The position numbers were made by a program, and so were the translations under genes. A stretch of 64,000 nucleotides of DNA from Candidatus Scatocola faecigallinarum (GTDB lineage Bacteria > Pseudomonadota > Alphaproteobacteria > RF32 > CAG-239), in assembly GCA_018713605.1 (NCBI GenBank), contig DVOM01000024.1, forward strand, positions 7,509 to 71,508, read 5' to 3'. The notes below the pieces were generated by a model. That model was not told the origin of the DNA. It saw only the letters and a list, made by a program, of their open reading frames with translations, and did no database searches. This document shows positions 6,223-45,352 of this stretch, piece by piece. How positions within the stretch are numbered: position 1 is the stretch's first letter; each line of letters begins with the position of its first letter.

Positions 6223-6934
6223 ACCAACCCCGGTCAGCCAGAAAAGAATAAAAACCGCCGCTGTCGAAAGATACGGCGCGTTTTTGGTCACGGTTGTCAA
6301 GCAGCCGTAAAATCCGGCGGCGGGTTTTTTCGGAAGGGCACCAGTTTTCGATCAGGGGCATATTGTCGGGGCCGCGTCGGCCGGTGCGTCTTTCGACGAG
6401 CTGGGAAAAACGGCGTTTTTCTTCGTTCAGGCGGTCGTTGTCCGCGCCTTCGGCACGGCTGAATTCGATAATGTCTTCCGGCGGAAAGCCGGAGCAGGCA
6501 CCCGAAATGACCGCGACATAGCTTCTGACCCGAGAGGGCGAAACGCGGGCTTCTTTCAGTTCGGGATTGAGGTCAACCAGTTCCTGATACATTCTGCGGA
6601 CGGCAAAAAGACTTTGCGGCTTGGTTTTCTGCAAGTCGGCGGCCAGAGTGTCGGTGCCCGGATTCATTCCGCGTTCGATGACTTCGTATATACGCATCGG
6701 CTTCATAAGCGCTTCGTATTCAAGCGGGTTCATGTCTTCGGGAAATTTGTAATTGTGATAAATGCCCCGCAGTCCGGAGGCCTTTTCAAAGCGTTTGACC
6801 GGCGAATAGTTCCGGTAGTCCAGACAGGCATAAAGCGCCGCCAGTTCGTTTCGGCGTTCTTCGGGAACGGCAGCATAGATTTCCTTTTGAACGGCCAGGC
6901 TTTGTTCTTTTCTGAAAGGACGGCGGTTTTCCAT
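6212..6934 (-). CDS. Hypothetical protein
   Basis: A 240-aa ORF convergent with 5536..6222, overlapping it by 11 nt. Coding-like composition. No family recognised. Confidence 0.5.
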   Translation of the reverse strand: MENRRPFRKEQSLAVQKEIYAAVPEERRNELAALYACLDYRNYSPVKRFEKASGLRGIYHNYKFPEDMNPLEYEALMKPMRIYEVIERGMNPGTDTLAADLQKTKPQSLFAVRRMYQELVDLNPELKEARVSPSRVRSYVAVISGACSGFPPEDIIEFSRAEGADNDRLNEEKRRFSQLVERRTGRRGPDNMPLIENWCPSEKTRRRILRLLDNRDQKRAVSFDSGGFYSFLADRGWFND

Positions 6935-7041
6935 GTTTTTCTCCGTGGCTGTAAAGGTAATTATAGATTGAAAATATTAAGATTGCAACTTGATAAATTT
7001 CCGTTATACTCGGGGCAAACATTTAATTTCAGGAGTATAAA

Positions 7042-8721
7042 ATGGCATCATATCAGTATATTTTCGTTATGCAGAATTTAACCAAGGTTTTTCCGGGCGG
7101 CAGGGAACTGTTCAAGGGAATTACGCTGTCGTTTCTGCCGGGCGCCAAAATCGGCGTGCTGGGCGTGAACGGCGCCGGTAAATCTACATTGCTGAAAATT
7201 ATGGCCGGTGTGGACAAGGAGTTTAACGGCGAGGCCTGGGCGGCCGACGGCGTTAAGGTCGGTTATCTGGAGCAGGAGCCGAAACTGGATCCAAACAAAA
7301 ACGTTATGGAAAACATTATGGACGGACTGGGCGAAACCCGTGACCTGCTGAAACGTTTTGAGGAAGTTTCTGCCAAGTTTGCCGAGCCGATGAGCGATGA
7401 CGAAATGAATGCCCTGATAGAAGAGCAGGCCGCTTTGTCGGAAAAAATCGATGCCTGTGACGGTTGGAATTTTGAACGAACCATTCAGATTGCAATGGAC
7501 GCTTTGCGTTGTCCGCCGGCCGATGCCGACGTTACCAAACTTTCCGGAGGCGAAAAACGCCGCGTGGCTCTGTGCCGTCTGCTGTTGCAGAAACCTGACA
7601 TGCTGCTTTTGGACGAGCCGACCAACCATTTGGACGCCGAATCGGTGGCCTGGCTGGAAAATCATCTTAAAGAATATAAGGGAACCGTGGTTATGGTTAC
7701 GCACGACCGCTACTTCCTGGACAATGTTACCGGCTGGATATTGGAGCTTGACCGCGGTCAGGGCATTCCTTATGAGGGGAATTATTCGTCCTGGCTGGAA
7801 CAGAAGCAGAAACGTTTGGAACAGGAAGCCCGTGAGGAAACCGCGCGTCAGAAAACGCTGGCCAACGAGCTGGAATGGATTCACAAAAATCCGAAAGCGC
7901 GTCAGGCGAAGTCCAAAGCGCGCATCAATGCCTATGACGAGTTGCTGAACGCGGCGACCAAAGACAAAATCACGCAGGCGCACATCAATATTCCGATGAC
8001 CGACAGGCTCGGCGATTTGGTTATTGAAGCCAACAACATTTCCAAAGGTTATGGCGACCGTCTGCTGATTGATAATCTGTCCTTCAAGATTCCGAAGGGT
8101 GCGATTGTCGGTATTATCGGTCCGAACGGCGCCGGCAAGACCACTTTGTTCCGCATGATTACCGGTCAGGAAAAACCGGATGCCGGCGAAATCAGAATCG
8201 GCGAGACGGTTGACCTCGGTTATGTCGATCAGAGCCGCGACGAGCTGGATCCGAACAAAAACGTCTGGGAGGAAATTTCTGACGGTCTGGACATGATACA
8301 GCTCGGCAAAAAGGAAATGCCGTCGCGCGCTTATGTCGGACAGTTCAATTTTAAGGGCGGCGACCAACAGAAAAAAGTCGGGCAGCTTTCCGGCGGCGAA
8401 CGCAACCGCGTACATTTGGCCAAAATGCTTAAAAAAGGCGCCAATGTCATTCTGCTGGACGAGCCGACCAATGATCTTGACGTCGATACGCTGCGTTCTC
8501 TGGAAGAAGGCATTATGGAATATCCGGGCTGCGTGCTGGTTACGTCCCATGACCGCTGGTTCCTGGACCGTCTGGCAACACATATTCTTGCTTATGAGGG
8601 CGACAGTCAGGTCGTATGGTTTGAAGGAAACTTTGAGGAATACGAAAAAGACAAGAAACGCCGTCTCGGCGACGATGCCCTGGTACCGCATGCCATTAAG
8701 TACAGGAAACTTACCCGCTAG
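7042..8721 (+). CDS. ettA: Energy-dependent translational throttle ABC-F ATPase EttA
   Basis: 559 aa with two ABC cassettes ([24 protein letters not shown]; [16 protein letters not shown]). The N-terminus [18 protein letters not shown] is typical of EttA. Confidence 0.92.
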
Positions 8722-14508: not shown

Positions 14509-14775
14509 TTTGTCATGTTCGGCCTTGAGCCGGACATCTCCCCTACAGATTCCCCGGTCAAGCCGGGGAATGACGAAAAAGAAAAAAAGCCGGGCAATGA
14601 CAGTATCATTTTCTTTCCCCTGTTACCCTCGGGCTTGTCCCGGGGTCTCTGGATTGCCGTGTGTAAATTCCCAACTACGTTGGGCCCCTTTCGTTCCGTA
14701 AGCCTCGAATTTCGCTTATAGCTCGTTCTCGCCAACTATCGACTCCAAGTCCGGCAATGACGATATTATTTTTTT
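14509..14775. repeat. Cluster of short palindromic repeat units (GTCAT..CCGG-loop-CCGG..ATGAC family)
   Basis: Units present include TGTCATGTTCGGCCTTGAGCCGGACATCTCCCC, AGATTCCCCGGTCAAGCCGGGGAATGAC, GCCGGGCAATGACAG and TCCGGCAATGACG. Related copies occur at 33181-33330, 34461-34600 and 39010-39200. Confidence 0.8.
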
Positions 14776-32139: not shown

Positions 32140-32427
32140 ATGGAAGGTATGATGATTTTGAAAGCCATGCTTTCGCTGGCTTTTGTGTTGGGACTGATGT
32201 TCCTGACGCTGTGGGCGGTCAGGTACTGCCAGCTGCACGGCGCCAAAAGCCGTTTTATGCGCAAACTTGGCGAACAGCAGCGATTGCAGGTTCTGGAGGT
32301 TCGCCGTCTGGACGCGCGGAATACGCTTGTTTTGTTCCGAAAAGACAAAGACGAGCATTTGGTTTTGCTCGGTGCGGCGCAGAATTTGCTGATTGAAACC
32401 GTTCCGCTTAAGAAGGCTCAAAAATAA
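32140..32427 (+). CDS. fliO: Flagellar biosynthesis protein FliO
   Basis: One TM segment followed by LQVLEVRRLDARNTLVLFRKDKDEHLVLLG, a FliO-like core. Its stop overlaps the fliP ATG by 1 nt. Confidence 0.65.
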   Translation: MEGMMILKAMLSLAFVLGLMFLTLWAVRYCQLHGAKSRFMRKLGEQQRLQVLEVRRLDARNTLVLFRKDKDEHLVLLGAAQNLLIETVPLKKAQK

Positions 32428-33170
32428 TGTCTAGGAAATTCTTTCTTTTTGGTTTTGTTCTTGCGGCGGCGCTGCTGTATTTCAGTTTTCCGGCAGAGGC
32501 GCAGACGCTCAGCCTGAATATTCAGGATCAGCCGAGCGGTTCGGCAACGGCAAGGATTTTTAACCTTATTCTGCTGATTACGGTGTTGTCGATTGCGCCG
32601 AGCCTGCTGGTAATGATGACGTCGTTTACACGTATCGTCGTCGTTTTTTCGATTACGCGCAGCGCGCTGGCGACCAACTCGACGCCGCCGAATATGGTGC
32701 TGCTCTCGCTGGCTTTGTTCCTGACCATGTTCATTATGGCGCCGACGTTTGAAAAGTCCTGGGAAGAGGGCATTAAGCCGATGTATGAAGAGAAAGTCGA
32801 AATTATCGAGGGACTGGAAAAGGCTGCGGAGCCGATTAAGGAATTTATGATTCGGAACACCCGGGAAAAAGACTTGCTGCTGTTTACCGATCTGGCTAAG
32901 GAAAAACCGGCCGAAACGGTTGCGGAAACGCCGTTGAAAGTTGCCATTCCTGCGTTTATGATCAGCGAACTGCGCCGCGCGTTTGAAATCGGCTTTTTGA
33001 TTTTCGTGCCGTTTCTGATTATTGATATGGTTATCGCTTCGGTGCTGATGTCGATGGGTATGATGATGCTGCCGCCAACGGTTTTGGCTTTGCCTTTCAA
33101 GGTTATTTTCTTTGTTCTGGTTGACGGGTGGTATATGTTGGCCGGGTCGTTGGTTCACTCCTTTAAATAA
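32427..33170 (+). CDS. fliP: Flagellar type III export apparatus protein FliP
   Basis: 247 aa, LLITVLSIAPSLLVMMTSFTRIVVVFSITRSALA ... FLIFVPFLIIDMVIASVLMSMGMMMLPP, the FliP signature. Confidence 0.92.
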   Translation: MSRKFFLFGFVLAAALLYFSFPAEAQTLSLNIQDQPSGSATARIFNLILLITVLSIAPSLLVMMTSFTRIVVVFSITRSALATNSTPPNMVLLSLALFLTMFIMAPTFEKSWEEGIKPMYEEKVEIIEGLEKAAEPIKEFMIRNTREKDLLLFTDLAKEKPAETVAETPLKVAIPAFMISELRRAFEIGFLIFVPFLIIDMVIASVLMSMGMMMLPPTVLALPFKVIFFVLVDGWYMLAGSLVHSFK

Positions 33171-33180
33171 AATATTTGTT

Positions 33181-33330
33181 CTGTCATTGCCGGTTTTTTT
33201 CGTCATTTCCCGGTTTGACTTGGGAATCCTTAGATTGCCGGATCAAGTCCGGCAATGACAGAGCGAGTACTTGAGCAGGGAATCTATATATCCCCGGCGT
33301 TGGCACTATGTGCTGCCCGAGGATGACGGA
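33181..33330. repeat. Cluster of palindromic repeat units of the same family
   Basis: CTGTCATTGCCGG..., CGTCATTTCCCGG..., TAGATTGCCGGATCAAGTCCGGCAATGACAG and ...CCCGAGGATGACGG. Confidence 0.75.
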
Positions 33331-33525
33331 AATGCAAGCACAATTTTGGCTAAATAGTCGGTCATGCTCCGGCTTCACCGGAGCTGCTCCCCATACGTGC
33401 CGAGTTTGTTCTGTAAGTCTCGTGGTTTTTGCTGTCGCTCAACCGCTCGCCAACAGGACTGCACCGCAGCCGGCTCGCAGCTTCACCGGAGCTGCTCCCC
33501 ATACTGCGCCAGGTGTAGCAGAAAT

Positions 33526-33575: not shown

Positions 33576-34175
33576 TTAGAAGACGTAGCGGATACCGCCG
33601 TAGACTTCGTGAGCGCGAACCGAAGCTTTTTCAATTTCGCCCATGTGCAAGAAACGGTAACCGACGTCAATGTTGATACGGTTGGTCAGCTTGGCCGAGA
33701 GACCGCCGCCGACGGCCCAGGTAAAGTTGTCTTCTTCATATTTGACGGAACGGCGCCCGAAACCCTGAAATTCGTACTGAATGTTGGTCATACCGATACC
33801 GGCCATGACATAGGGCGTAAACATCGAGTAGGGGGTCAAATCGGCATAAACGTTTAACATGTAAGACATGGTCTGAAAATTCGAATGGTTTCTGGCGTCA
33901 ATTTCGCCGGTGGCCTTGTCGGTTTCTTCACGCCAGGTATATTCGAGCTCGGCGCGGAAATAAGTATAGCGGTAGCCGAGAGCGATGCCGGCCATCCAGG
34001 CATTGTCGTCTACTTCCAGTCTGTCGCCGAGGGCTTCGTCGGAATCGCCGACGTTATGGTTAACGATACCGCCGCGGACGCCCATATAAAAACCGTCGCA
34101 TTCGGCAGAGGCAGACGCGGCCAGACTCATAGACATGACAAAGGCCGTAAATGCCGATAAAAGTTTTTTGCTCAT
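33576..34175 (-). CDS. Small outer-membrane beta-barrel protein (OmpA-like 8-strand / porin family)
   Basis: Signal peptide ending ASASA-E. Alternating aromatic/hydrophobic strands and a C-terminal GGIRYVF. Confidence 0.75.
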   Translation of the reverse strand: MSKKLLSAFTAFVMSMSLAASASAECDGFYMGVRGGIVNHNVGDSDEALGDRLEVDDNAWMAGIALGYRYTYFRAELEYTWREETDKATGEIDARNHSNFQTMSYMLNVYADLTPYSMFTPYVMAGIGMTNIQYEFQGFGRRSVKYEEDNFTWAVGGGLSAKLTNRINIDVGYRFLHMGEIEKASVRAHEVYGGIRYVF

Positions 34176-34460
34176 TCGTTCACTCCAAATAAATTTAGCT
34201 GAAAAAGTCTATTTTGTCCAAATTTATACAATAATTTGTTTAATTACGCAAGTCTAAAATTCATACTTTATGCTTAAATCTAGCCAAAATGTCTTAAAAT
34301 GTGATTAATAAAGCTGATATTTCAGGCAGATGAGTTGAAAAAAAGCCGGTTTGAGCCGTTTGCAGGCGCGACTCGGCAAAAGATTTTGCGACTCGGTAAT
34401 TAGGGTAAGTGTTCGGCTTATTTCGGGAATTTCCGGTTATATCTGAAGGTAACTTTTTTC

Positions 34461-34600
34461 TGTCATTTCCGTGCACTTTTTCTTTCCTTTGTCATTCCCC
34501 GGCTTGAGCGGGAAATCCAAGCGGCTAAGCGTTTCTAGATCCCCGGACTAAATCCGGGGATGACAGAAACGCTTGGCCGGAATTGGCCAGAGGATGACGA
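34461..34600. repeat. Palindromic repeat cluster forming the left boundary of the low-GC insert
   Basis: TTTCTTTCCTTTGTCATTCCCCGGCTTGAGCGGGAAATCC...AGATCCCCGGACTAAATCCGGGGATGACA. It aligns in direct orientation with 39026-39101. Confidence 0.8.
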
Positions 34601-34682
34601 TAGGGGGGATTTTAAAAAGGGAAAGGGCGGCAGGTAAACCTGCCACCCTTTCTATATTATTATAATAATATTTTTTATTGGT

Positions 34683-35522
34683 TTAGAAGCGACCCTTGTT
34701 CGGGCGGCGTCCTAAGCCGAATTCTATTTTTACCGTAACGGACCCGTAAACCGGTTGGTAGGACTTGCCGAAGCTTTTGAATTGATAGCTTTCAACACGT
34801 CCTTCAAGAGAAACTTTGGTTATTGAGCCAATGAAACGTTTCTCAAGACCAAGGACAGCTCCATATTTGACAGAACTGCCATCCTTTACAGATGGGAAGT
34901 CCACTGTGCCGGGGACATCAACGTCCGGATCCGGATCTTCATAGTGGAAATTGGTGGTATTTTTGCAATACTGGTATCCGACTGACGGACCAGCATATAA
35001 TCTCCACGACCTCCCGTAACGTTCGTTGCGGAGAGCATGCTTCTTTTGATAAGGAGTCATGCCCGTCGTATTTACCACTGTTTTATTCCCAAAATGCGCC
35101 AGAGTGATGGCGAAATCAACAGAGGCGCCAAGAGAACGGAACTGTTGTCCAAGCTCTTTAGCTATTTCCATTTTTTCGCCAATTTCGGCGTTGACACTGA
35201 CGTGTCCCCAGCCGAAGTAATTCTGTACGAAAGCACCATATTGAGCGCCCCCGTAAGAATTTATACCGGCTTTTGCTCCAATGCTCCAGCCAGTGATGAC
35301 GGTAGCTTTGGGCTCGCCGTCTTTGAACTTCACGTCATACGGTTGCCCTCCGAAAGCATCAGCGAGATCGATGTATGACATGTCGATTGCAGCGGTGTCT
35401 CCTGTTTCGGTGACAGCTGTGAAATCGTATTCAACACTTGCGCCGGTATTTTCTTGCGCACTAATATTTGTTGTTGCAGCAATCATAGCTACTACGACAG
35501 CTGCTAATTTGAAAGTCTTCAT
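34683..35522 (-). CDS. Outer-membrane beta-barrel protein (insert gene 2)
   Basis: 279 aa. Signal peptide MKTFKLAAVVVAMIAATTNISAQE, beta-strand periodicity, and a C-terminal ...KGRF. Confidence 0.65.
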   Translation of the reverse strand: MKTFKLAAVVVAMIAATTNISAQENTGASVEYDFTAVTETGDTAAIDMSYIDLADAFGGQPYDVKFKDGEPKATVITGWSIGAKAGINSYGGAQYGAFVQNYFGWGHVSVNAEIGEKMEIAKELGQQFRSLGASVDFAITLAHFGNKTVVNTTGMTPYQKKHALRNERYGRSWRLYAGPSVGYQYCKNTTNFHYEDPDPDVDVPGTVDFPSVKDGSSVKYGAVLGLEKRFIGSITKVSLEGRVESYQFKSFGKSYQPVYGSVTVKIEFGLGRRPNKGRF

Positions 35523-35614
35523 AAAAAGTTGTGTTAGTTCCCCGGGCGGTTGTTATGCCCGGGGAGGATTATTTTGCTAAATTTTTTTCTCTTATTTCTG
35601 ACAGCAGTGGTAAG

Positions 35615-38464
35615 TTACCATGCTGCAGCAGTAGCAGAACCTTCAGCCGAAGATACTGTTACAGAACCATCGGCGTTCTCCTTGGAAGAAGATGCGATAT
35701 AGACTTCCGGTTTGCCATGAGCAGCAATTTGAACTTGGTTGAGTTCGATTGATGTAATGGCGGTGTTGTTGTTAGCTTTTTCAATGCTTCTCCAGATAAA
35801 GGCATTACCGCTTTGATATGCGCGAGTGAAAACCCATGTTCCGTCAGCTTTTTGAGCAAGGCTTGCAACACCGGAAGGAGCATTTACTTCATCCCAGCTC
35901 TTCTTGGCTACTTCTTTGCCATCGATAAAGCCCTTTAATCCGCCGCCTACGAGTTGTCCATTTTCATAGATGTTGTAAACGAAGATTGTGGCAATGTGAT
36001 GGGCATTGTTGTAATCCCAAGTATGAGACTGGCTTCCAGATGAGATTCCGAACTGGTTAGGAGCAACGACCCAAAGGTTGACTTCTGCGCTGGCGTCGGT
36101 TGAACGGCCGTTAAATGTTGCACTAATCTGAGATTTGTACATCATGCCGTTCTTTCCGTCTTTACGACCGAGGTCAACAAGGCTGGAGGAACCCAAATCG
36201 GTAAAGCTGTATGTCTTAGAAGTCATTGCAAAGCTGTCGCCGATAGTCGGAACAAATTCAGCTTCTTCATGATAAGCAGCAAATACAACTTGGGCTTTGT
36301 TAGTCTTTGTTGTATAAGTTGTTTTGTACTTCTTTACAGTAAACTTACCATACTTGCCGGCAGCCTCGCGGGTGCTTACAAGTTGCTTGGATCCTTCAAC
36401 TGCATTGGCGTCTGAAACGTTGAAGTTGTCAGTGTCAATGTTTTGGCCGGCCGGAGCTTCGATAGAATTGAAAATCTGAACACCGTCAGTACCCAGTTCC
36501 TTTTCAGTGCCGTCAGACATGATGGCATAGAAAGTAGCATAAGTATAAGAGGTGGTCGGATTTACGTAATCGAAACCGAAGTTTTTGCCTATAGTTCCTT
36601 TTGGGCTGGCCTCTTCACCTTTGTCATTCCAAACTTCAGTATCGGTGTTGTGTGCCGAAGCAGCATTTTTACCGAAAGCAGCGTTGTAAATGAAAGATAC
36701 CGGAGTAACCTCGTAGTTGTGGTTGTTCTCTTTTTCTTCACGTACATTGCCCAGAGAAGTCTTAGAATGTTCCAAAACCCACATCGGAACTGTCAAGTTG
36801 CAGCTCTTTCCGCCTTCAGTATAAGTCAAAGCTGTATACTGGAGTTCAATCTCATGAGCATGGCCGTTATAAGAAGCGGTCATATCCTGAGACATGGTTT
36901 GGAAAGTTAAACCTTCATGCTTTGTAGATGAACCAACTTTTGTTGCGTTGCCTTTCTTAGCAATTGTCGGGTTGCCAAAATTGGTGTTGTCGCGATACAG
37001 TCTGTCCAGTTTAGGCATGATGATTTTGCTTGCATAACCGTAGTTGTTGACAACGGTGGTGTCGCTGTATGTGTTGTCGTCATAATAACGTGTAATCACA
37101 TAAGTTTTGTCACCGTCGAAACTCTTTTCGGTTACTCTTGTCAGGTTCTTTTCAGGTTTTGGTTCTTCGCCTTTCAGCTTACGGAGAATAATTTCTCCTT
37201 CGCCGTTCAGGTTACGGTCATAGTAGGTCGCAACAATCCGTGAGTAAGCGTGTTTCTGCTCATAACCGTATCCGGCCATGTCGGTCAGTTCGGTTGTGCC
37301 GCTGTCGCGGAATGAGAAATCTTTGCTCAAGAACTGTATATTTTCTCCCATTCCCTGAGGCACAATATAAGTGGCCTCTTCAGTGTGTGCGTAAAATACA
37401 CTTGAAGACTTGTCGGTCTTGGTTGTGTAAGTTGTTACGTACTCCTGAATGGAAATGGATCCTACCAATCTCGGGTCGCCAACTTTTTCTTTGGAACCGG
37501 CAACCGGTTCTAAGTCTGTTAAAGCAAAAGCTTCATCGTCTTTCAAATCAACAATGACGCCTTCGGCATTAACCAACCAGAAGCGAAGGGTTGCAGAAAC
37601 ATCAGAAAGTTTTTCTTCCTTACCGTTGTTCAATTTTTGCCACATTTCGAATGCTGTTTCGGCAGTATTGTCAGATGTGGTTTTGAACGTGAAGTTCTTT
37701 CCAAACATTTCCGTAGCTTCGGGATCCGGCTCAATGGTGTTGTTGGCTACGAAGAATTTGTGGGTTTTTGTAAACTCACGAACGTCGTCTTCATTGTAAA
37801 CAAATTCCCACACGAGAGTGTTGGTATAAAGTTTACCTTCAACGCCTTCATGAGTGTAAGCTTCGCCCTTTTCTCCGTAACGAACACCCTTGAAATTGCC
37901 TAACCAATAGCTGGATTTCATCTCCCAACCTTTATACCATGCTTTTTCGTGCACAGTATTGATGGTTTCTGAGAAACTGCCAAAGTTGTAGTTCCAACCA
38001 GCGCTAAACTCCATTTTAGTGAAGTCTCCGCTTTGGTAAGAACGAGTGGCTCTGGTAGCTGAGAAACTCGGAGCTCCGATAATGCTGTCAGGAACCACGA
38101 TAATATCGTGATCACAGTCAGCGATTGAAGCTCTGACATTCAGGTCGGTGCGTACTTCTTTGCTTATACCATCTTCAATGATGGGATAGTATGAAGTGTA
38201 GTGTTCTTCATCTTTGAAGTAGAGCTCTGGATTGCCGTCAGCTTTGATGCCTTCCTTTTTGATTACCTCGACAGTTAATGTGTCGTGAACGGGATACCAG
38301 ATGGTATCTTTTTTCTCGATGATAACCTCGATGGTTTTCTGGGAAGCCGTGAATGTCGGCATACCATCTTCACTGTTAGTGCAAGAAGTAAACATTGCAC
38401 CAAAAACTACTGTGCAGAGCAACATTACTAATGCCGCAGCTGCGAAATTTTTCATTGTTCTCAT
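35615..38464 (-). CDS. Large predicted surface lipoprotein with two duplicated modules (insert gene 1)
   Basis: 949 aa. Signal peptide plus lipobox-like MFTSC, followed by TNSEDG. The composition is T/S/N/Y/K-rich. No family recognised. Confidence 0.7.
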   Translation of the reverse strand: MRTMKNFAAAALVMLLCTVVFGAMFTSCTNSEDGMPTFTASQKTIEVIIEKKDTIWYPVHDTLTVEVIKKEGIKADGNPELYFKDEEHYTSYYPIIEDGISKEVRTDLNVRASIADCDHDIIVVPDSIIGAPSFSATRATRSYQSGDFTKMEFSAGWNYNFGSFSETINTVHEKAWYKGWEMKSSYWLGNFKGVRYGEKGEAYTHEGVEGKLYTNTLVWEFVYNEDDVREFTKTHKFFVANNTIEPDPEATEMFGKNFTFKTTSDNTAETAFEMWQKLNNGKEEKLSDVSATLRFWLVNAEGVIVDLKDDEAFALTDLEPVAGSKEKVGDPRLVGSISIQEYVTTYTTKTDKSSSVFYAHTEEATYIVPQGMGENIQFLSKDFSFRDSGTTELTDMAGYGYEQKHAYSRIVATYYDRNLNGEGEIILRKLKGEEPKPEKNLTRVTEKSFDGDKTYVITRYYDDNTYSDTTVVNNYGYASKIIMPKLDRLYRDNTNFGNPTIAKKGNATKVGSSTKHEGLTFQTMSQDMTASYNGHAHEIELQYTALTYTEGGKSCNLTVPMWVLEHSKTSLGNVREEKENNHNYEVTPVSFIYNAAFGKNAASAHNTDTEVWNDKGEEASPKGTIGKNFGFDYVNPTTSYTYATFYAIMSDGTEKELGTDGVQIFNSIEAPAGQNIDTDNFNVSDANAVEGSKQLVSTREAAGKYGKFTVKKYKTTYTTKTNKAQVVFAAYHEEAEFVPTIGDSFAMTSKTYSFTDLGSSSLVDLGRKDGKNGMMYKSQISATFNGRSTDASAEVNLWVVAPNQFGISSGSQSHTWDYNNAHHIATIFVYNIYENGQLVGGGLKGFIDGKEVAKKSWDEVNAPSGVASLAQKADGTWVFTRAYQSGNAFIWRSIEKANNNTAITSIELNQVQIAAHGKPEVYIASSSKENADGSVTVSSAEGSATAAAW

Positions 38465-39009
38465 GATTTTTGTTTTTTTATTGTTATTATTTTTGTTATT
38501 TTCTTTGGAGGGAACTTCGGGAAATATGGGTTTCGGGAAGTTTTATTTGAAAAATTATGTCAGAGATGGAGATTCAAATTCAGCTGATAACCCTTTGGTC
38601 TAACCTAAATTTTATGAATCCTTTTATTCTTTTAAAATAACTGGCCATTGTAATCTAACATAATCCTTATTTGTCGAATTTTAGAATAGCACAAAATTGA
38701 TTAAAAAACAATAAAAACCATATGAATCTCTTTGATTTTTATCGTTTTAACAAAAGTGTAACAATGTTTAAAATGTCCAAGTTTGGACAAAATCGGTTAT
38801 TTTCAGGGAGTCGCCGCCGATGACGTAAGTTTGTGAATTTTAAGACTTTTTTGAAACAAAATGAATCCGCGCAGCTGATGGTTGCACAAATTTAGCAGAA
38901 TCCCGGACTCAAAAAGAAACGAATCGGAGTGTTTTTTGTATTTCGGCGCGAATTTTCCGGAGATGTCCGACTCGGAAAAGCTGTTTTGTGGTATTTGGAC
39001 TTTTTTGAT

Positions 39010-39200
39010 TGTCATTGTCAGGCATTCCTTTTCTCTTTCCTGTCATTTCCGGTTTTGGCGGGGAAAGCCGGAAGATCCCCGGGTTAAACCCGGGGATGAC
39101 ATCAGAGGTAGGGTAAACCCGGGGATGACGCCAGGGGAGATGTCCGGGACAAGCCTGAACATGACAGATAAAAGAAAGCCCGAATATGACGGAAAGGACG
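39010..39200. repeat. Palindromic repeat cluster forming the right boundary of the low-GC insert
   Basis: CTGTCATTTCCGGTTTTGGCGGGGAAAGCCGGAAGATCCCCGGGTTAAACCCGGGGATGACA, then GGGTAAACCCGGGGATGACG, then GGGGAGATGTCCGGGACAAGCCTGAACATGACA. The last unit is an inverted copy of the unit at 14511-14544. Confidence 0.8.
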
Positions 39201-39348
39201 GAGAAAGGGATAAGTCTGAAAAACTAATATTTTTCTTGAAGAATCAATTGATATGTTATAGATTCGCAGACAGTTCAAAGAATCGGCCTGCGCCTTTCGG
39301 GGCGTGTGGCCATGTTTTAACAATATAGCTATAGGAGCTGAAACAACA

Positions 39349-42045
<2,697 letters not shown>

Positions 42046-42140: not shown

Positions 42141-42475
42141 TTATTATTCCGCTCATTCTCCAGAGTTTTTTTGTGTAAAAAAATAAGTCCTTTTAGGCTA
42201 AGTTACGTACGTTGATGTACGCGCCTGTCGCCTAAAAGGCTTTTTCTTATTATAATCCTCGTATATCGGCTTTTGTTTTTTCTCTTCTCTTTTTATTGTT
42301 TTGCGTATTTTCCTGAGTTTGGAAAAAGCCAGGTTCAGGCTTTTCCGATATGGCTTTAGCTTTGCCGCGTGAAACGATTATTGTATGAGGGCGAAAAGAG
42401 GTTTCGGGGCGCCTTTTTTATTGTTTTTTAAGGTTCGTGGTATATGTATTTGTTCAAATACAGGTGAGGTGTGAA

Positions 42476-43063
42476 ATGAAACCGTATAACCAGGGAAATG
42501 TCGATTTTTTCTGCGGCATTTATGCCGTTATCAACGCATGTCGTTATGCCGGGCGCAAATATCATATTTTCAGCTTTAAGGAGGGCTGCGCGTTTTATCA
42601 GCATATGATGCAGTTTCTGCTGGACAAAGGGCTGTTTGAAGAGGTTCTCTATCATGGCTCTTCTTTTGAAATTATGCAGATGTATTTGGAACAGGCCTGT
42701 AAGTACATGTATGAGCATTATCGGCTGCGGTTGTTCTATAAGCGGCCGTTTACATGGATGGACATGCCGCTTGAACGGGCGACCAGAGTCATCGCCAAAT
42801 ATCTGACGGCGCCGAACACGGCCTCAATAATTCGCTTTGAAAACAAAGACTGCGGCGACCTCTGGTCAATAATCCGGGCGGTGCCGTTTCCGCTGAGCAG
42901 GTTTAAACTGTTTGACAGTTATCTGTATCCGCATTTGGATACAGGCAGCTGTCGTTGGGAAAAAGGCAAAAAATGCAGTTATGTACCGCGCGAGGGGATT
43001 ATTTTTGTTAAAATCGCACCCGAAAAGCCGGATAAGTTGTCAGATGATATTGACAAAAACTGA
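42476..43063 (+). CDS. Hypothetical protein with an N-terminal Q-x6-C-G motif
   Basis: 195 aa from ATG 42476, preceded by a GGTGAGGTG SD. The N-terminus reads MKPYNQGNVDFFCGIYAVINACRY. No family recognised. Confidence 0.55.
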   Translation: MKPYNQGNVDFFCGIYAVINACRYAGRKYHIFSFKEGCAFYQHMMQFLLDKGLFEEVLYHGSSFEIMQMYLEQACKYMYEHYRLRLFYKRPFTWMDMPLERATRVIAKYLTAPNTASIIRFENKDCGDLWSIIRAVPFPLSRFKLFDSYLYPHLDTGSCRWEKGKKCSYVPREGIIFVKIAPEKPDKLSDDIDKN

Positions 43064-43178
43064 TCTTTGATTACATTTACAGCCATAGTTAATATATTTT
43101 TTAGGAGTATTTTGTTTTTTGAAAACATTTTAAGCCTCAGGCTTTACCATATTTTTATAACGTTTTAATTTTTATAGT

Positions 43179-43658
43179 ATGAAGGAAAATCTTCTCTCCA
43201 AAAAAGATGCCAAAGTTCAGCTTGAACGGCTTGGCATAATTGTAAAGGAAGACGACGTGCAAATAGGCCGTTTTTTCCTGATTGAAAATCCCGGCAGCGG
43301 CAAAGTGACGGTTTCGCCTTTTTGCGTCTGTGGGGAAGGCGTAACCGGATTGGGCGTTTGTTTCGTGTATTACTATCACGGAATTCTGACTGAAAACCGG
43401 TATCGGAATTTTGTTTACAGCTGCATGAATTTTCTGATTCCCGACAACAGGAAGAAAACTTATGCCGTTTATGTCCGGGCTTTCAGCGGCAAACACAGCC
43501 GTTTTCCGGAATTTGTGCTGAAAGAAAATTCTGAAATGATCCGTTATGATCTGCCCGGACATTCGTTTATGGCCGATGCCGGCGAATGGGTAGTTGTTGA
43601 CGGCAGAATCGTTGCGGCAAAGGCGGTTTTCAAAACCCCGGTTGCCATGCGCGGATAA
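43179..43658 (+). CDS. Hypothetical protein
   Basis: A 159-aa ORF followed by a clear terminator. No family recognised. Confidence 0.5.
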   Translation: MKENLLSKKDAKVQLERLGIIVKEDDVQIGRFFLIENPGSGKVTVSPFCVCGEGVTGLGVCFVYYYHGILTENRYRNFVYSCMNFLIPDNRKKTYAVYVRAFSGKHSRFPEFVLKENSEMIRYDLPGHSFMADAGEWVVVDGRIVAAKAVFKTPVAMRG

Positions 43659-43664
43659 TTTGTT

Positions 43665-43705
43665 ACGACAGGTTTGTCCTAAGGGGCAGACCTGTCGTTT
43701 GTTTT
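43665..43705 (+). terminator. Rho-independent terminator
   Basis: ACGACAGGT...ACCTGTCGT followed by TTGTTTT. Confidence 0.7.
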
Positions 43706-43730
43706 AAATAAATTTGACGGCTTATGAATA

Positions 43731-43759
43731 TTGACAAAATTTGTCCAGAGTGGTATTTT
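43731..43759 (+). promoter_or_regulatory. Sigma70-like promoter TTGACA-N17-TATTTT
   Basis: Exact -35 consensus at 43731-43736 and -10 at 43754-43759, about 65 nt upstream of the 43824 ATG. Confidence 0.5.
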
Positions 43760-43823
43760 GCGGGTCGATTGATATTAAGAATATGCGAGAGTATTACTAT
43801 AGTTTAATTTAAATTGAAAAATC

Positions 43824-44606
43824 ATGGAAAAGAAAGTTATCATTTCAGACCTGACATTGTCAGCCGCTGAAGGTGTTGCAGAAACAAAGGCCAAACGTTT
43901 TTGGGAAAACCGCATGAAACCTTATGAAAAAGTCAGGTTTCTGGCCGGGCATTTTGACCGTTTTATCGAGTATAATCCCGAATATGTTCAGGAAGGTCCG
44001 ATTCAGATTGTCGTTTCGGCGACCAAAGACGTCGGCGCTTATCAGATCGGGCCGGACGAATATATGGAAGACGTGCTGGTTTCCAGAACGCCTCTGCGCG
44101 GGGCAAAATATTTTGTGGCCCTGCTCGGCGAAGCCAGAAACTGTGCAAGTTCTCACCGACGTTTCCAGCGTTGTCTGTATGCAAATACATTTTATCTGCA
44201 TATTGACGGCAAAGGGATTATTCATCTTGACAGGCTGTTGGACAACAATGACTGGCTTTTTGCCGACCGCGTTGACCGCGCTCTGGAGATTGCGGTTAAG
44301 CGTCTGGGCGGAAAAATGTCTGAAGAGGAAAAGCCGCAGTGGTGCGATTTTTCCTACGGCGAAATCAAAGATTTCGGCCGGGTCGGATATTATGTTGCCA
44401 AAGACGGCCGGAAACGTCTGATTATCTGCATGCTCAATTCCGGAACAATTTTGCCGGAACTTGATGCCAATGATGTCAAGCTTTCCGTTTTGTCTAGAAA
44501 AGGCGAATATTCCGATATGGTAAATCCGCTGCTGCGTTTCAGAATGCTGTCCAATAACATTGTTGCCCGTGTCAGTGCGGACAATGTAAATGCGTTTATG
44601 CGATGA
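43824..44606 (+). CDS. Hypothetical protein, paralog 1 of a tandem pair
   Basis: 260 aa. It aligns with the next gene over roughly 200 aa: YNPEYVQEGPIQIVVSA / YNPGYEQEGPMQIAVSA and LIICMLNSGTIL / VLICMPNSGAIL. Confidence 0.6.
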   Translation: MEKKVIISDLTLSAAEGVAETKAKRFWENRMKPYEKVRFLAGHFDRFIEYNPEYVQEGPIQIVVSATKDVGAYQIGPDEYMEDVLVSRTPLRGAKYFVALLGEARNCASSHRRFQRCLYANTFYLHIDGKGIIHLDRLLDNNDWLFADRVDRALEIAVKRLGGKMSEEEKPQWCDFSYGEIKDFGRVGYYVAKDGRKRLIICMLNSGTILPELDANDVKLSVLSRKGEYSDMVNPLLRFRMLSNNIVARVSADNVNAFMR

Positions 44607-45352
44607 ACAGCTATAAGATTTCCCGAGTGCCGGTTGTCGGCGGCGGGAAGAGAGAACGGCGGACTCCGTTTTCGCAGAGAGTTGACGAACTTGCGGACAA
44701 TTTGAAGGGCTTTTTTGCCTATAATCCCGGTTATGAGCAGGAAGGTCCGATGCAAATTGCCGTGTCGGCAAGGGTAGACGAAGGAACCTACCAGTATGCG
44801 CCGGACAAATATGCCGAAAACATTCTGGTTTCCAAAACGCCGCGCAAAGGTGCCGATTTTTTTGTCGCAGGCCTTGGCGCATCCCGTCTTCCCGGCGGCA
44901 GAAACGTCGGCAAACGCTGCCATTATTCCCGAACCTATTATGTCTGGAAAGATGGCGAAGGCTATTGTTGCAGGCTCTTGCTCAACAACGGCGAACAGCT
45001 TGTTGCCAAAAAGGCGGACGCGGCTCTGGACTGGATAATCGCCCGGGTCGGAGGCACGGCGCTGCAAGACGGTTCCGGCTGGTTTCGTTTCCGGCTGGAA
45101 GACGGTCTGAATTCGCTGGGCAGAATCAGGTGTTACTGGGATAAGGACGAAGAGCTGAGGGTGCTGATTTGCATGCCCAATTCGGGTGCAATTCTTGATT
45201 ATGCGTCTTTTGACGTGGAAATCGGCGAAGTTTTGCAGCCGGGGCATTATTATTCGACCCGTTTTCTGAACTTTATGCTGAACGGGCTGGATAACCTGCA
45301 GAGCAACCAGACGCTTTCGCAGAAAGAACTGAACGATGATTTGACGCCATGA
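44603..45352 (+). CDS. Hypothetical protein, paralog 2 of a tandem pair
   Basis: 249 aa. Its start forms an ATGA overlap with the upstream stop, which indicates translational coupling. Confidence 0.6.
   Translation: MNSYKISRVPVVGGGKRERRTPFSQRVDELADNLKGFFAYNPGYEQEGPMQIAVSARVDEGTYQYAPDKYAENILVSKTPRKGADFFVAGLGASRLPGGRNVGKRCHYSRTYYVWKDGEGYCCRLLLNNGEQLVAKKADAALDWIIARVGGTALQDGSGWFRFRLEDGLNSLGRIRCYWDKDEELRVLICMPNSGAILDYASFDVEIGEVLQPGHYYSTRFLNFMLNGLDNLQSNQTLSQKELNDDLTP

Follow-up and report, generated by a model that had tools for sequence, protein, structure and literature searches.

In Neisseria and the Pasteurellaceae, the tbpB-tbpA and lbpB-lbpA pairs place the lipoprotein gene first, and this lipoprotein is much more variable than the barrel that follows it and is mosaic within and between species. 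In Slam-dependent (type XI) secretion, a dedicated outer-membrane barrel is encoded beside its surface lipoprotein. Bacteroidota have a lipoprotein export signal (LES), for example QKDDE, SDDDD or SDDFE (Lauber et al. 2016, PMC5080379), and recombination hot regions exist in bacterial genomes (PMC4866539). Here, we describe a locus on a 64,000-nucleotide stretch of contig DVOM01000024.1 from Candidatus Scatocola faecigallinarum (the window; 64 kb), in which two co-oriented minus-strand genes, one for a giant lipoprotein of 949 aa and one for a 279-aa predicted beta-barrel protein, lie between a porin gene and ppdK. The reading that we favour, and to which we give a probability of roughly two in three, is that the pair is a resident two-gene operon of gut Alphaproteobacteria that is hypervariable through recombination between strains and between congeneric species. 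The original prediction, made from the sequence of the window, had taken the same pair for a foreign insert of possible Bacteroidota origin, bracketed by direct repeats.

Among the described systems, tbpB-tbpA and lbpB-lbpA are the closest analogue, both in operon order and in population genetics. In contrast to TbpA, a TonB-dependent transporter of ~900 aa and 22 strands, the partner studied here has 279 aa and ~8-12 predicted strands and gave no match to the Pfam families TonB_dep_Rec or Plug, which sets the pair apart from the TbpB/TbpA type, and the lipoprotein has no sequence or fold relationship to TbpB. A type IX secretion cargo with a PorP/SprF anchor does not describe the pair either: neither protein has a Pfam match, and the cargo would be a lipoprotein and not a protein with the type IX C-terminal domain. 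SusC/D was also considered, and the pair was set apart from that system. Recombining variable surface-protein loci are of a known kind, and it is the lipoprotein/barrel family building this one that is uncharacterised.

The evidence that carries the favoured reading comes from comparing the window with its relatives segment by segment. Homologous contexts were obtained as nine contigs, fetched through word-index matches of the two proteins (131 matches for the 949-aa protein, all unnamed metagenome proteins with 53-98% identity, and 77 for the 279-aa protein, with 39-100% identity), and DNA identity to the window was determined for four contigs of the same species (L003, L087, L088 and L089) and for one contig of another species (L001). 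ppdK is 98.7-100% identical within the species and 87.2% identical in L001, and the flanking genes are 97-98% identical within the species (L003, L087 and L088; they are not on L089) and ~72-82% identical per alignment window in L001. Inside the two-gene cassette, each segment tells a different story. The barrel gene is 80% or 96% identical within the species and 87.6% identical in L001; the 5' third of the lipoprotein gene is 68, 80 or 94% identical within the species and 75.6% in L001; its middle is 74% identical (with half of it missing) or 98% identical within the species and 97.2% identical in L001, over a tract of 1260 bp; and its 3' third is 77-82% identical within the species and 71.9% in L001. 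Synonymous divergence (dS) gives the same picture: between the window and L001 it is 0.03-0.13 in most 60-codon windows of the shared tract (0.39 at aa 423-482), with a nonsynonymous divergence (dN) of ~0, and it is 0.89 in ppdK, whereas between the window and L003 it is ~1 in the cassette and 0.05 in ppdK. Since the histories of the segments are discordant and the segments reassort independently, the pattern is the one left by homologous recombination, inside the species and across species, and on these alignments the locus appears to be a mosaic that recombines at both levels. A lineage of low guanine-plus-cytosine (GC) content like that of L001 is a plausible recent donor of the middle tract. 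In a 100-bp sliding alignment, divergence within the species is confined to ~34400-38400 and the promoter region at 38400-39000 is 91-99% identical, so that the breakpoints fall within the conserved 5' region on one side and the downstream spacer on the other. The dN/dS ratio is ~0.2 in the cassette versus 0.01 for ppdK, which points to relaxed or mixed constraint on the cassette.

The position of the pair is conserved while its content varies. On one flank lies a gene for a 199-aa porin of the OMP_b-brl/Opacity type (33576-34175, minus strand; Pfam E 2e-20), followed by fliP (32427-33170), and on the other lies ppdK, which is divergently transcribed from its real start at 39349. The strong terminator-like hairpin right after the barrel gene (Table 1) argues that the two genes form a transcription unit of their own. 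The gene order (ppdK <> lipoprotein > barrel > porin < fliP-dciA-dsbA-atp) is the same on all contigs that are long enough (L001-L003 and L087-L091). In a scan of ppdK against species representatives of the Genome Taxonomy Database, the closest among the matches listed were metagenome-assembled genomes (MAGs) from mouse (MGBC), rabbit (Lapin) and rumen (RUG), with ppdK protein identities of 85-95% to the closest MAGs listed and 77% to Candidatus Enterousia, which identifies the host, as far as ppdK can place it, as an uncultured gut alphaproteobacterium of a clade related to Candidatus Enterousia. One of the Enterousia MAGs in the comparison (L023) has been placed in the order Rs-D84 (PMC12306168).

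In eight relatives with a ppdK protein identity of at least 85% (L005, L006, L007, L010, L011, L012, L013 and L015), a giant lipoprotein gene (795-1420 aa) lies immediately 5' of ppdK, and each of these lipoproteins has a signal peptide, the cysteine and an acidic tail. A gene for a signal-peptide protein of 233-289 aa usually follows 3' of the lipoprotein gene, and the unit is sometimes doubled in tandem. In L014, a similar pair (931 + 278 aa, with a motif that is only lipobox-like) lies in reverse orientation, at a distance of a few kb upstream of ppdK, and among the ppdK contexts inspected no giant lipoprotein gene was seen upstream of ppdK in Enterousia or in more distant taxa. L055, a more distant species and the only one in which an empty site was seen, has a pheA-like gene directly beside ppdK; in L007, two lipoprotein/partner pairs stand between ppdK and the same pheA-like gene (70% amino-acid identity). 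The presence of cassettes 5' of ppdK across the clade, together with the contrast between L055 and L007, argues for an old hotspot and not for a recent insertion site, and the region upstream of ppdK appears to be an old variable hotspot in which the number of cassettes differs between species (zero, one or two). The best homologs of the pair are therefore syntenic in related alphaproteobacteria, an observation that the original prediction had itself named as one that would refute it. Tandem giant-lipoprotein genes 5' of ppdK are found in L007 (787-9450), L015 (891-9443), L011 (1764-9480) and L012 (1601-9402); where the tandem copies were compared with each other (L007, L011 and L015), they are clearly paralogous, and in L015 only one barrel gene follows the two lipoprotein genes.

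The 949-aa product begins with MRTMKNFAAAALVMLLCTVVFGAMFTSC|TNSEDG, with the signal peptide and lipobox at aa 1-28 (nt 38381-38464) and the acidic patch at aa 29-34. A bacterial lipoprotein is marked by a basic N-terminus, a hydrophobic core and the lipobox [LIVMFWSTAG]2-[LIVMFYSTAGCQ]-[AGS]-C within ~35 residues. The window protein matches a PROSITE-style regular expression for this pattern (MRTMK...GAMFTSC, with the cysteine at position 28), as do 183 of the 197 family proteins of at least 500 aa, and Cys28 is invariant in the homolog alignment A2. The signal peptide and lipobox followed by an acidic TNSEDG, as first proposed for this protein, thus agree with the pattern and with the invariant cysteine, which marks the product as a predicted lipoprotein. 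Among unique mature N-termini, 69 of 71 have at least two D or E residues at +2 to +9, and the N-terminal acidic patch appears to be a conserved feature of the family. The body that follows is predicted to be all-beta, multidomain and modular (AlphaFold2 model, mean predicted local distance difference test score (pLDDT) 72). It contains two copies of a repeat module, which in a targeted comparison of aa ~249-432 with aa ~618-800 are homologous (31% identity, E 2e-10); a self-BLAST of the whole 949-aa protein returned no internal repeats, and aa ~41-241 and aa ~439-613 did not match when compared. The L003 allele lacks the first module (profile positions 249-431), and distant homologs match the module of aa ~618-800 more often than any other segment and contain 1-4 copies of it. 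Neither the two proteins nor the relatives scanned with them (at least eight) fell into a significant Pfam or NCBIfam family, and a sequence search of the PDB with the A2 profile gave 0 matches at E <= 1. The whole 948-residue model gave uninformative Foldseek matches against the PDB (best E 2e-5 to 6e-4, template modelling (TM) score ~0.05, low probabilities), to Sevenless, to an acylaminoacyl-peptidase and to the SusE-like BT4661. Matches in BFVD, which are jumbo-phage tail- or fibre-like, had an E of 4e-11 at a TM score of 0.07 and 9% identity and were set aside as reflecting a long string of beta domains and not homology. By eye, many distant members share a C-terminal stretch, ...W.Y.G....M....AL..GIKNF.G.NTA..P...NGVL.VYN..G... 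(for example P0206, P0208, P0212, P0213, P0220 and P0232, and L005 5398-9456), and the C-terminus of the window subfamily, which ends ...SATAAAW, looks different or strongly diverged.

A signal peptide (...NISA|QE) opens the 279-aa protein, whose last residues are ...GRF. Its AlphaFold2 model is a beta-barrel with a mean pLDDT of 67, in which the core strands are mostly at 75-91 and the loop and helix regions lower, and its top Foldseek match is NspA (E 6e-5, TMt 0.68), followed by OmpX, PagL, OmpW and Ail. The model and the structural matches agree on a predicted barrel with a signal peptide and a C-terminal phenylalanine, as originally proposed, and the protein fits the class of small outer-membrane beta-barrels (OmpX/NspA/OmpW-like), on a moderately confident model in which the number of strands is uncertain. 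The window protein has no Pfam match at E <= 1, and its homolog in L015 has a weak match to OMP_b-brl (E 4e-4). Distant barrel homologs were found in L085 (E 7e-16), L086 (E 1e-9) and L015 (E 6e-7), always 3' of a family lipoprotein, and in L085 and L086 the pair lies at a different locus, adjoining mlaC. That the two genes stay together at unlike chromosomal sites speaks for a functional tie between them, though not an absolute one; the lipoprotein probably serves as a variable surface adhesin or antigen, with the barrel as its dedicated partner. Where the barrel gene would be expected in L005 (4575-5124), there are two opposite-strand open reading frames (ORFs) of 84 and 102 aa, which by eye resemble helix-turn-helix regulators.

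The same genetics could also serve nutrient capture, with a ligand- or glycan-binding lipoprotein feeding a small barrel channel by a logic like that of TbpB/TbpA or SusE/F-SusC. The order of the genes, lipoprotein first and barrel second in one operon, would suit this, as would the likeness of the barrel to OmpW-type small channels as well as to NspA and OmpX, the predicted tandem beta-sandwich-like architecture of the lipoprotein and the reduced genomes of Rs-D84 relatives, which depend on scavenging (PMC12306168). We nevertheless find this explanation unlikely: a TonB-dependent transporter would be far larger than this barrel, which also lacks the corresponding Pfam match, some cassettes have no barrel, and extreme allelic mosaicism is more typical of proteins that are selected for variation than of conserved ligand binding.

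A related proposal, which is doubtful but worth stating, is that the pair constitutes an undescribed two-component surface-display system, in which a barrel unlike Slam, BamA or the TonB-dependent transporters would export or anchor the lipoprotein and the acidic patch would act as a signal analogous to the LES. The patch resembles an LES in that a polar residue is followed by an acidic cluster within +2 to +7 (C-TNSEDG, C-DKSEDEF and C-ENGIDGE in this family). It differs in that the acidic residues peak at +2 and +5 to +7 and not at +3 to +5, and in that the host is an alphaproteobacterium; against the published Bacteroidota motif (K-(D/E)2, Q-A-(D/E)2 or S-D-D-D-D after Cys+1), the acidic cluster is conserved and its register is off the consensus. 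The likeness to Slam and type XI secretion is one of concept; Slam is a 14-stranded DUF560 barrel with an N-terminal TPR domain, whereas the 279-aa protein has no match to DUF560 or TPR domains, is about half the size and has a fold that matches small 8-stranded barrels.

The two genes also stand out in composition. The big gene has a GC content of 44.1% and a GC content at third codon positions (GC3) of 0.451, and the barrel gene 47.4% and 0.457, in a window of 50.3% GC; they have the lowest GC3 among the 57 longest non-overlapping ORFs of the window (mean 0.59, standard deviation 0.062), and show no drop in GC content at second positions. In 3-kb windows, the tetranucleotide distance to the whole-window profile is maximal at 35-39 kb (z = 3.5-3.6), and the 1-kb bin at 38001-39000 has 37.9% GC. 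The compositional distinctness of the block, which had been noticed from hand counts, is therefore stronger than those counts implied, and the AT-rich stretch reported upstream of the big gene, ~340 bp long, was recovered as well, with 24% GC at 38600-38799. The window, L003 and L001 share a cassette GC3 of ~0.45-0.47, and the GC3 of their ppdK genes is 0.61, 0.62 and 0.44, respectively; in the lower-GC relatives L014 and L015 the cassettes are GC-richer than the host genes. The GC3 of the cassette equals that of low-GC congeners, which explains the dip, and exchange of alleles between species of unlike GC would decouple the GC3 of the cassette (~0.45) from that of its host (~0.6) and give it a foreign look. 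The simplest reading is that a shared pool of alleles circulates among congeners of different GC; the deviant composition appears to reflect lateral exchange, with low-GC congeners and not another phylum as donors.

An explanation that dispenses with lateral exchange, in which the low GC is intrinsic (AT-biased mutation, weak codon selection) and the alleles diverge fast and vertically, draws on the cassette GC3 of ~0.40-0.55 whatever the GC3 of the host (0.32 to 0.62) and on a dN/dS ~20-fold above that of ppdK. Vertical divergence can, however, yield neither a 97% tract of 1.26 kb between species with a ppdK dS of 0.89 nor a dS of ~1 between conspecifics with a ppdK dS of 0.05, and the blocks reassort independently among contigs of the same species, so that we consider it highly improbable.

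The repeats on either side of the pair had been taken as the boundaries of an insert. The same repeat is indeed present on both sides, where it had been reported, but the two copies are not boundary marks, as other copies of it lie elsewhere in the window (Table 1). The repeat unit is ~62-78 bp long with inverted ends (TGTCAT...ATGACA), and its single strand folds far more stably than shuffled DNA does, with the z values listed for two of the copies. Four copies are found in the window and further ones in the same-species contig L003, and an nhmmer profile of the repeat found no copy in L001 or L002, which come from another species with the same pair at the same site. Among conspecifics, the repeat clusters are themselves variable, with 54-74% identity at 33200-33400, 34400-34600 and 39000-39100 in surroundings of 95-100%. 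A first blastn comparison had suggested the repeats as edges of the divergent block, and this was rejected when the 100-bp sliding alignment placed the right edge at ~38400, inside the 5' end of the coding sequence. The elements have the attributes of repetitive extragenic palindromes (REPs) or miniature inverted-repeat transposable elements (MITEs): they are short, have terminal inverted repeats, fold into hairpins and are dispersed between genes. They resemble REPs and bacterial interspersed mosaic elements (BIMEs), Correia elements and Rickettsia palindromic element (RPE)-type repeats in their inverted ends, hairpins, intergenic dispersal and strain-variable copy content, and differ from them in having no sequence relationship to any Rfam family (a gathering-threshold scan of the whole window gave 0 Rfam matches). 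The flanking 'direct repeats' thus appear to be ordinary dispersed palindromic intergenic elements and not insertion scars, and the element family seems to be confined to this species and near relatives. The claim that integrase, transposase and tRNA genes are absent stood: a tRNA scan found none in the whole window, and in a Pfam search of the two genes and of the neighbouring orphan ORFs at 42437-45352 no mobility-gene domain was found, with one sub-threshold match only. With no tRNA, no mobility domain, dispersed repeats and the pair present in all close relatives, the locus does not have the make-up of an integrative island.

The family itself also points to a proteobacterial home. A profile of the window subfamily matches the 1352-aa protein of L005 through the repeated modules (E 3e-43), and a chain of phmmer matches leads from L005 to L015 and L010 and from those to L007. 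An exhaustive HMMER profile search of 1.84 billion representative proteins returned 43 clusters at E <= 1e-3; the 14 family sequences that were inspected are without exception lipoproteins, ~900-1400 aa long, in which an acidic patch follows the cysteine, and one homolog carries the NCBI label 'Alphaproteobacteria bacterium'. The recovered contexts of distant homologs are all alphaproteobacterial or proteobacterial (ppdK, mlaC, an autotransporter gene in L085 and a kdsD-lptC-lptB-hpf-ptsN cluster in L086, which we take to be typically proteobacterial), and no homolog was traced to the Bacteroidota among the 43 clusters and recovered contexts, several short Logan contigs carrying no taxon. The lipoprotein/barrel family is uncharacterised and appears to be specific to uncultured gut Alphaproteobacteria. 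Although a recent Bacteroidota-derived islet between the porin gene and ppdK, bounded by a duplicated target or an attachment site (att)-like direct repeat, could call on the low GC3 and the tetranucleotide outlier, on the resemblance of the acidic patch to the published export signals, on the A-rich leader without a Shine-Dalgarno sequence and on the weak structural match to BT4661 (probability 0.30, TM 0.06), it is contradicted by the synteny of the pair in all close relatives and in another species, by repeats that are palindromic, occur at scattered sites and do not flank the pair in L001 or L002, by the lack of integrase and tRNA genes, by only 43 clusters despite the heavy sampling of gut Bacteroidota and by the uniformly proteobacterial contexts, and has next to no probability. 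What stands of the foreign module originally proposed is a surface-type module with a real lateral signal; its insertion between repeats of its own and its Bacteroidota origin do not.

Several points weigh against a hypervariable resident operon with a surface function. The cassettes of L005 and L010 have no detectable barrel partner, and in L006 and L007 no homology was detected between the small partner and the barrel. Surface exposure of the lipoprotein and its interaction with the barrel are pure inference. Under the Lol sorting rules of Escherichia coli, D or E at +2 leads to retention in the inner membrane, and many homologs have D or E at this position (the window protein has T). A dN/dS of ~0.2 does not demonstrate positive selection, and the low GC3 could partly be intrinsic to weakly expressed, fast-evolving genes. 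Finally, all sequences are metagenome assemblies and some of the mosaicism could in principle come from assembly chimeras, which is countered by the presence of the same alleles on many independent contigs and by an identity of 97%, not 100%, in the shared tract.

In the model of a hypervariable resident operon, the unit would run from the promoter through the giant lipoprotein gene and the gene for the small outer-membrane beta-barrel to the terminator, and gene segments of ~0.5-1.3 kb as well as whole repeat modules would be exchanged by homologous recombination. The lipoprotein would be lipidated at Cys28, sorted to the outer membrane and displayed on the surface as an extended row of beta-rich modules, serving as an adhesin or antigen, and the co-inherited small barrel would be its membrane partner, as an anchor or export helper. 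A diversifying pressure, such as host antibody (immunoglobulin A), phage or partner-cell recognition, would keep many mosaic alleles in the population.

Table 1. Positions of the two genes, their parts and the associated elements in the window
Feature	Position	Strand	Basis or remark
Giant modular lipoprotein gene (predicted), 949 aa	35615..38464	-	ORF, lipobox rule, Cys28 invariant, AlphaFold2
Repeat module, copy 1 (aa ~249-432)	37169..37720	-	31% identity to copy 2; absent from L003 allele
Repeat module, copy 2 (aa ~618-800)	36065..36613	-	family hallmark, motif Y.TTYTTKTNK...EEA
Tract apparently exchanged recently between species	36479..37738	-	97.2% to L001; L001 ppdK 87.2%
Partner gene, predicted small outer-membrane beta-barrel, 279 aa	34683..35522	-	AlphaFold2 and Foldseek; homologous partners in L085, L086, L015
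Intrinsic terminator-like hairpin (14-bp stem, 9 GC pairs, T-run)	34621..34652	-	directly 3' of the 279-aa gene
AT-rich upstream and leader region of the operon	38465..39000	-	91-99% identity within species while the coding sequence diverges
Palindromic REP/MITE-like element, left copy	34489..34566	+	repeat search and profile
Palindromic REP/MITE-like element, right copy	39041..39102	+	folding z = -4.4; partial extra unit 39111-39130
Third element copy, fliP-porin spacer, outside the proposed insert	33201..33262	+	nhmmer E 3e-16; folding z = -6.2
Fourth element copy, 20 kb from the locus	14510..14576	-	nhmmer E 1e-8

Some further features of the locus and its surroundings were recorded. Upstream of the ATG of the big gene lies an A-rich leader (aataaaaaaacaaaaatcATG) without a Shine-Dalgarno sequence (38440-38470), and the barrel gene has no well-spaced one (35523-35560), whereas GGAG or AGGA precedes most ORFs of the window that start with ATG. 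A near-perfect palindrome (TGTCCAAGTTTGGACA) is located at 38774-38789, ~310 bp 5' of the lipoprotein ATG and beside a promoter-like site that faces ppdK, and a related half-site (TTTGTCCAAAT) is present in the upstream region of the porin gene (34202-34230); together, they could be candidate sites of a shared regulator. The pattern TGTCCAAnTTGGACA, which has a 1-base spacer where the real site has 2, gave a number of matches not above chance and is uninformative. The ORF at 38882-39328 (plus strand, 148 aa) is mostly a translated palindromic repeat cluster without a Pfam match and is probably a spurious gene call; its counterparts have been called as genes in public assemblies (L003 9084-9530, and a 172-aa call in L089 at 6612-7130). 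The porin gene (33576-34175) is less conserved within the species than the fliP and atp genes (~93% versus 97-98% nucleotide identity), with a dip at 33900-34100, which suggests that the gene hitch-hikes with the hotspot next to it or that the porin is itself under selection. Downstream of ppdK, a second low-GC stretch (40-43% GC over 42-44 kb; window 42437-45352) holds four orphan ORFs of 208, 159, 260 and 249 aa, none with a Pfam match, the last two of which (43824-44606 and 44603-45352) are paralogous as judged by eye from their translations. This block is 94-95% identical at the nucleotide level within the species and ~68% identical to L001, and similar unannotated genes are found in relatives.

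For genome scanning, the locus holds the lesson that a repeat-flanked dip in composition can be a recombination hotspot and not an insertion. For the organisms, it bears on gut Alphaproteobacteria related to Candidatus Enterousia, which have small genomes and of whose cell surface almost nothing is known; in the order Rs-D84, a partner-dependent lifestyle is suspected (PMC12306168). The locus is a clear candidate for the main variable surface structure of these bacteria, and it offers a strain-typing marker and, for studies of the interaction with host or partner cells, a candidate adhesin or antigen. It also provides a test case for LES-like acidic signals and small partner barrels in the surface exposure of lipoproteins outside the Bacteroidota, and if the pair were indeed a display system, it would extend a convergent or shared logic of lipoprotein surface export beyond that phylum.

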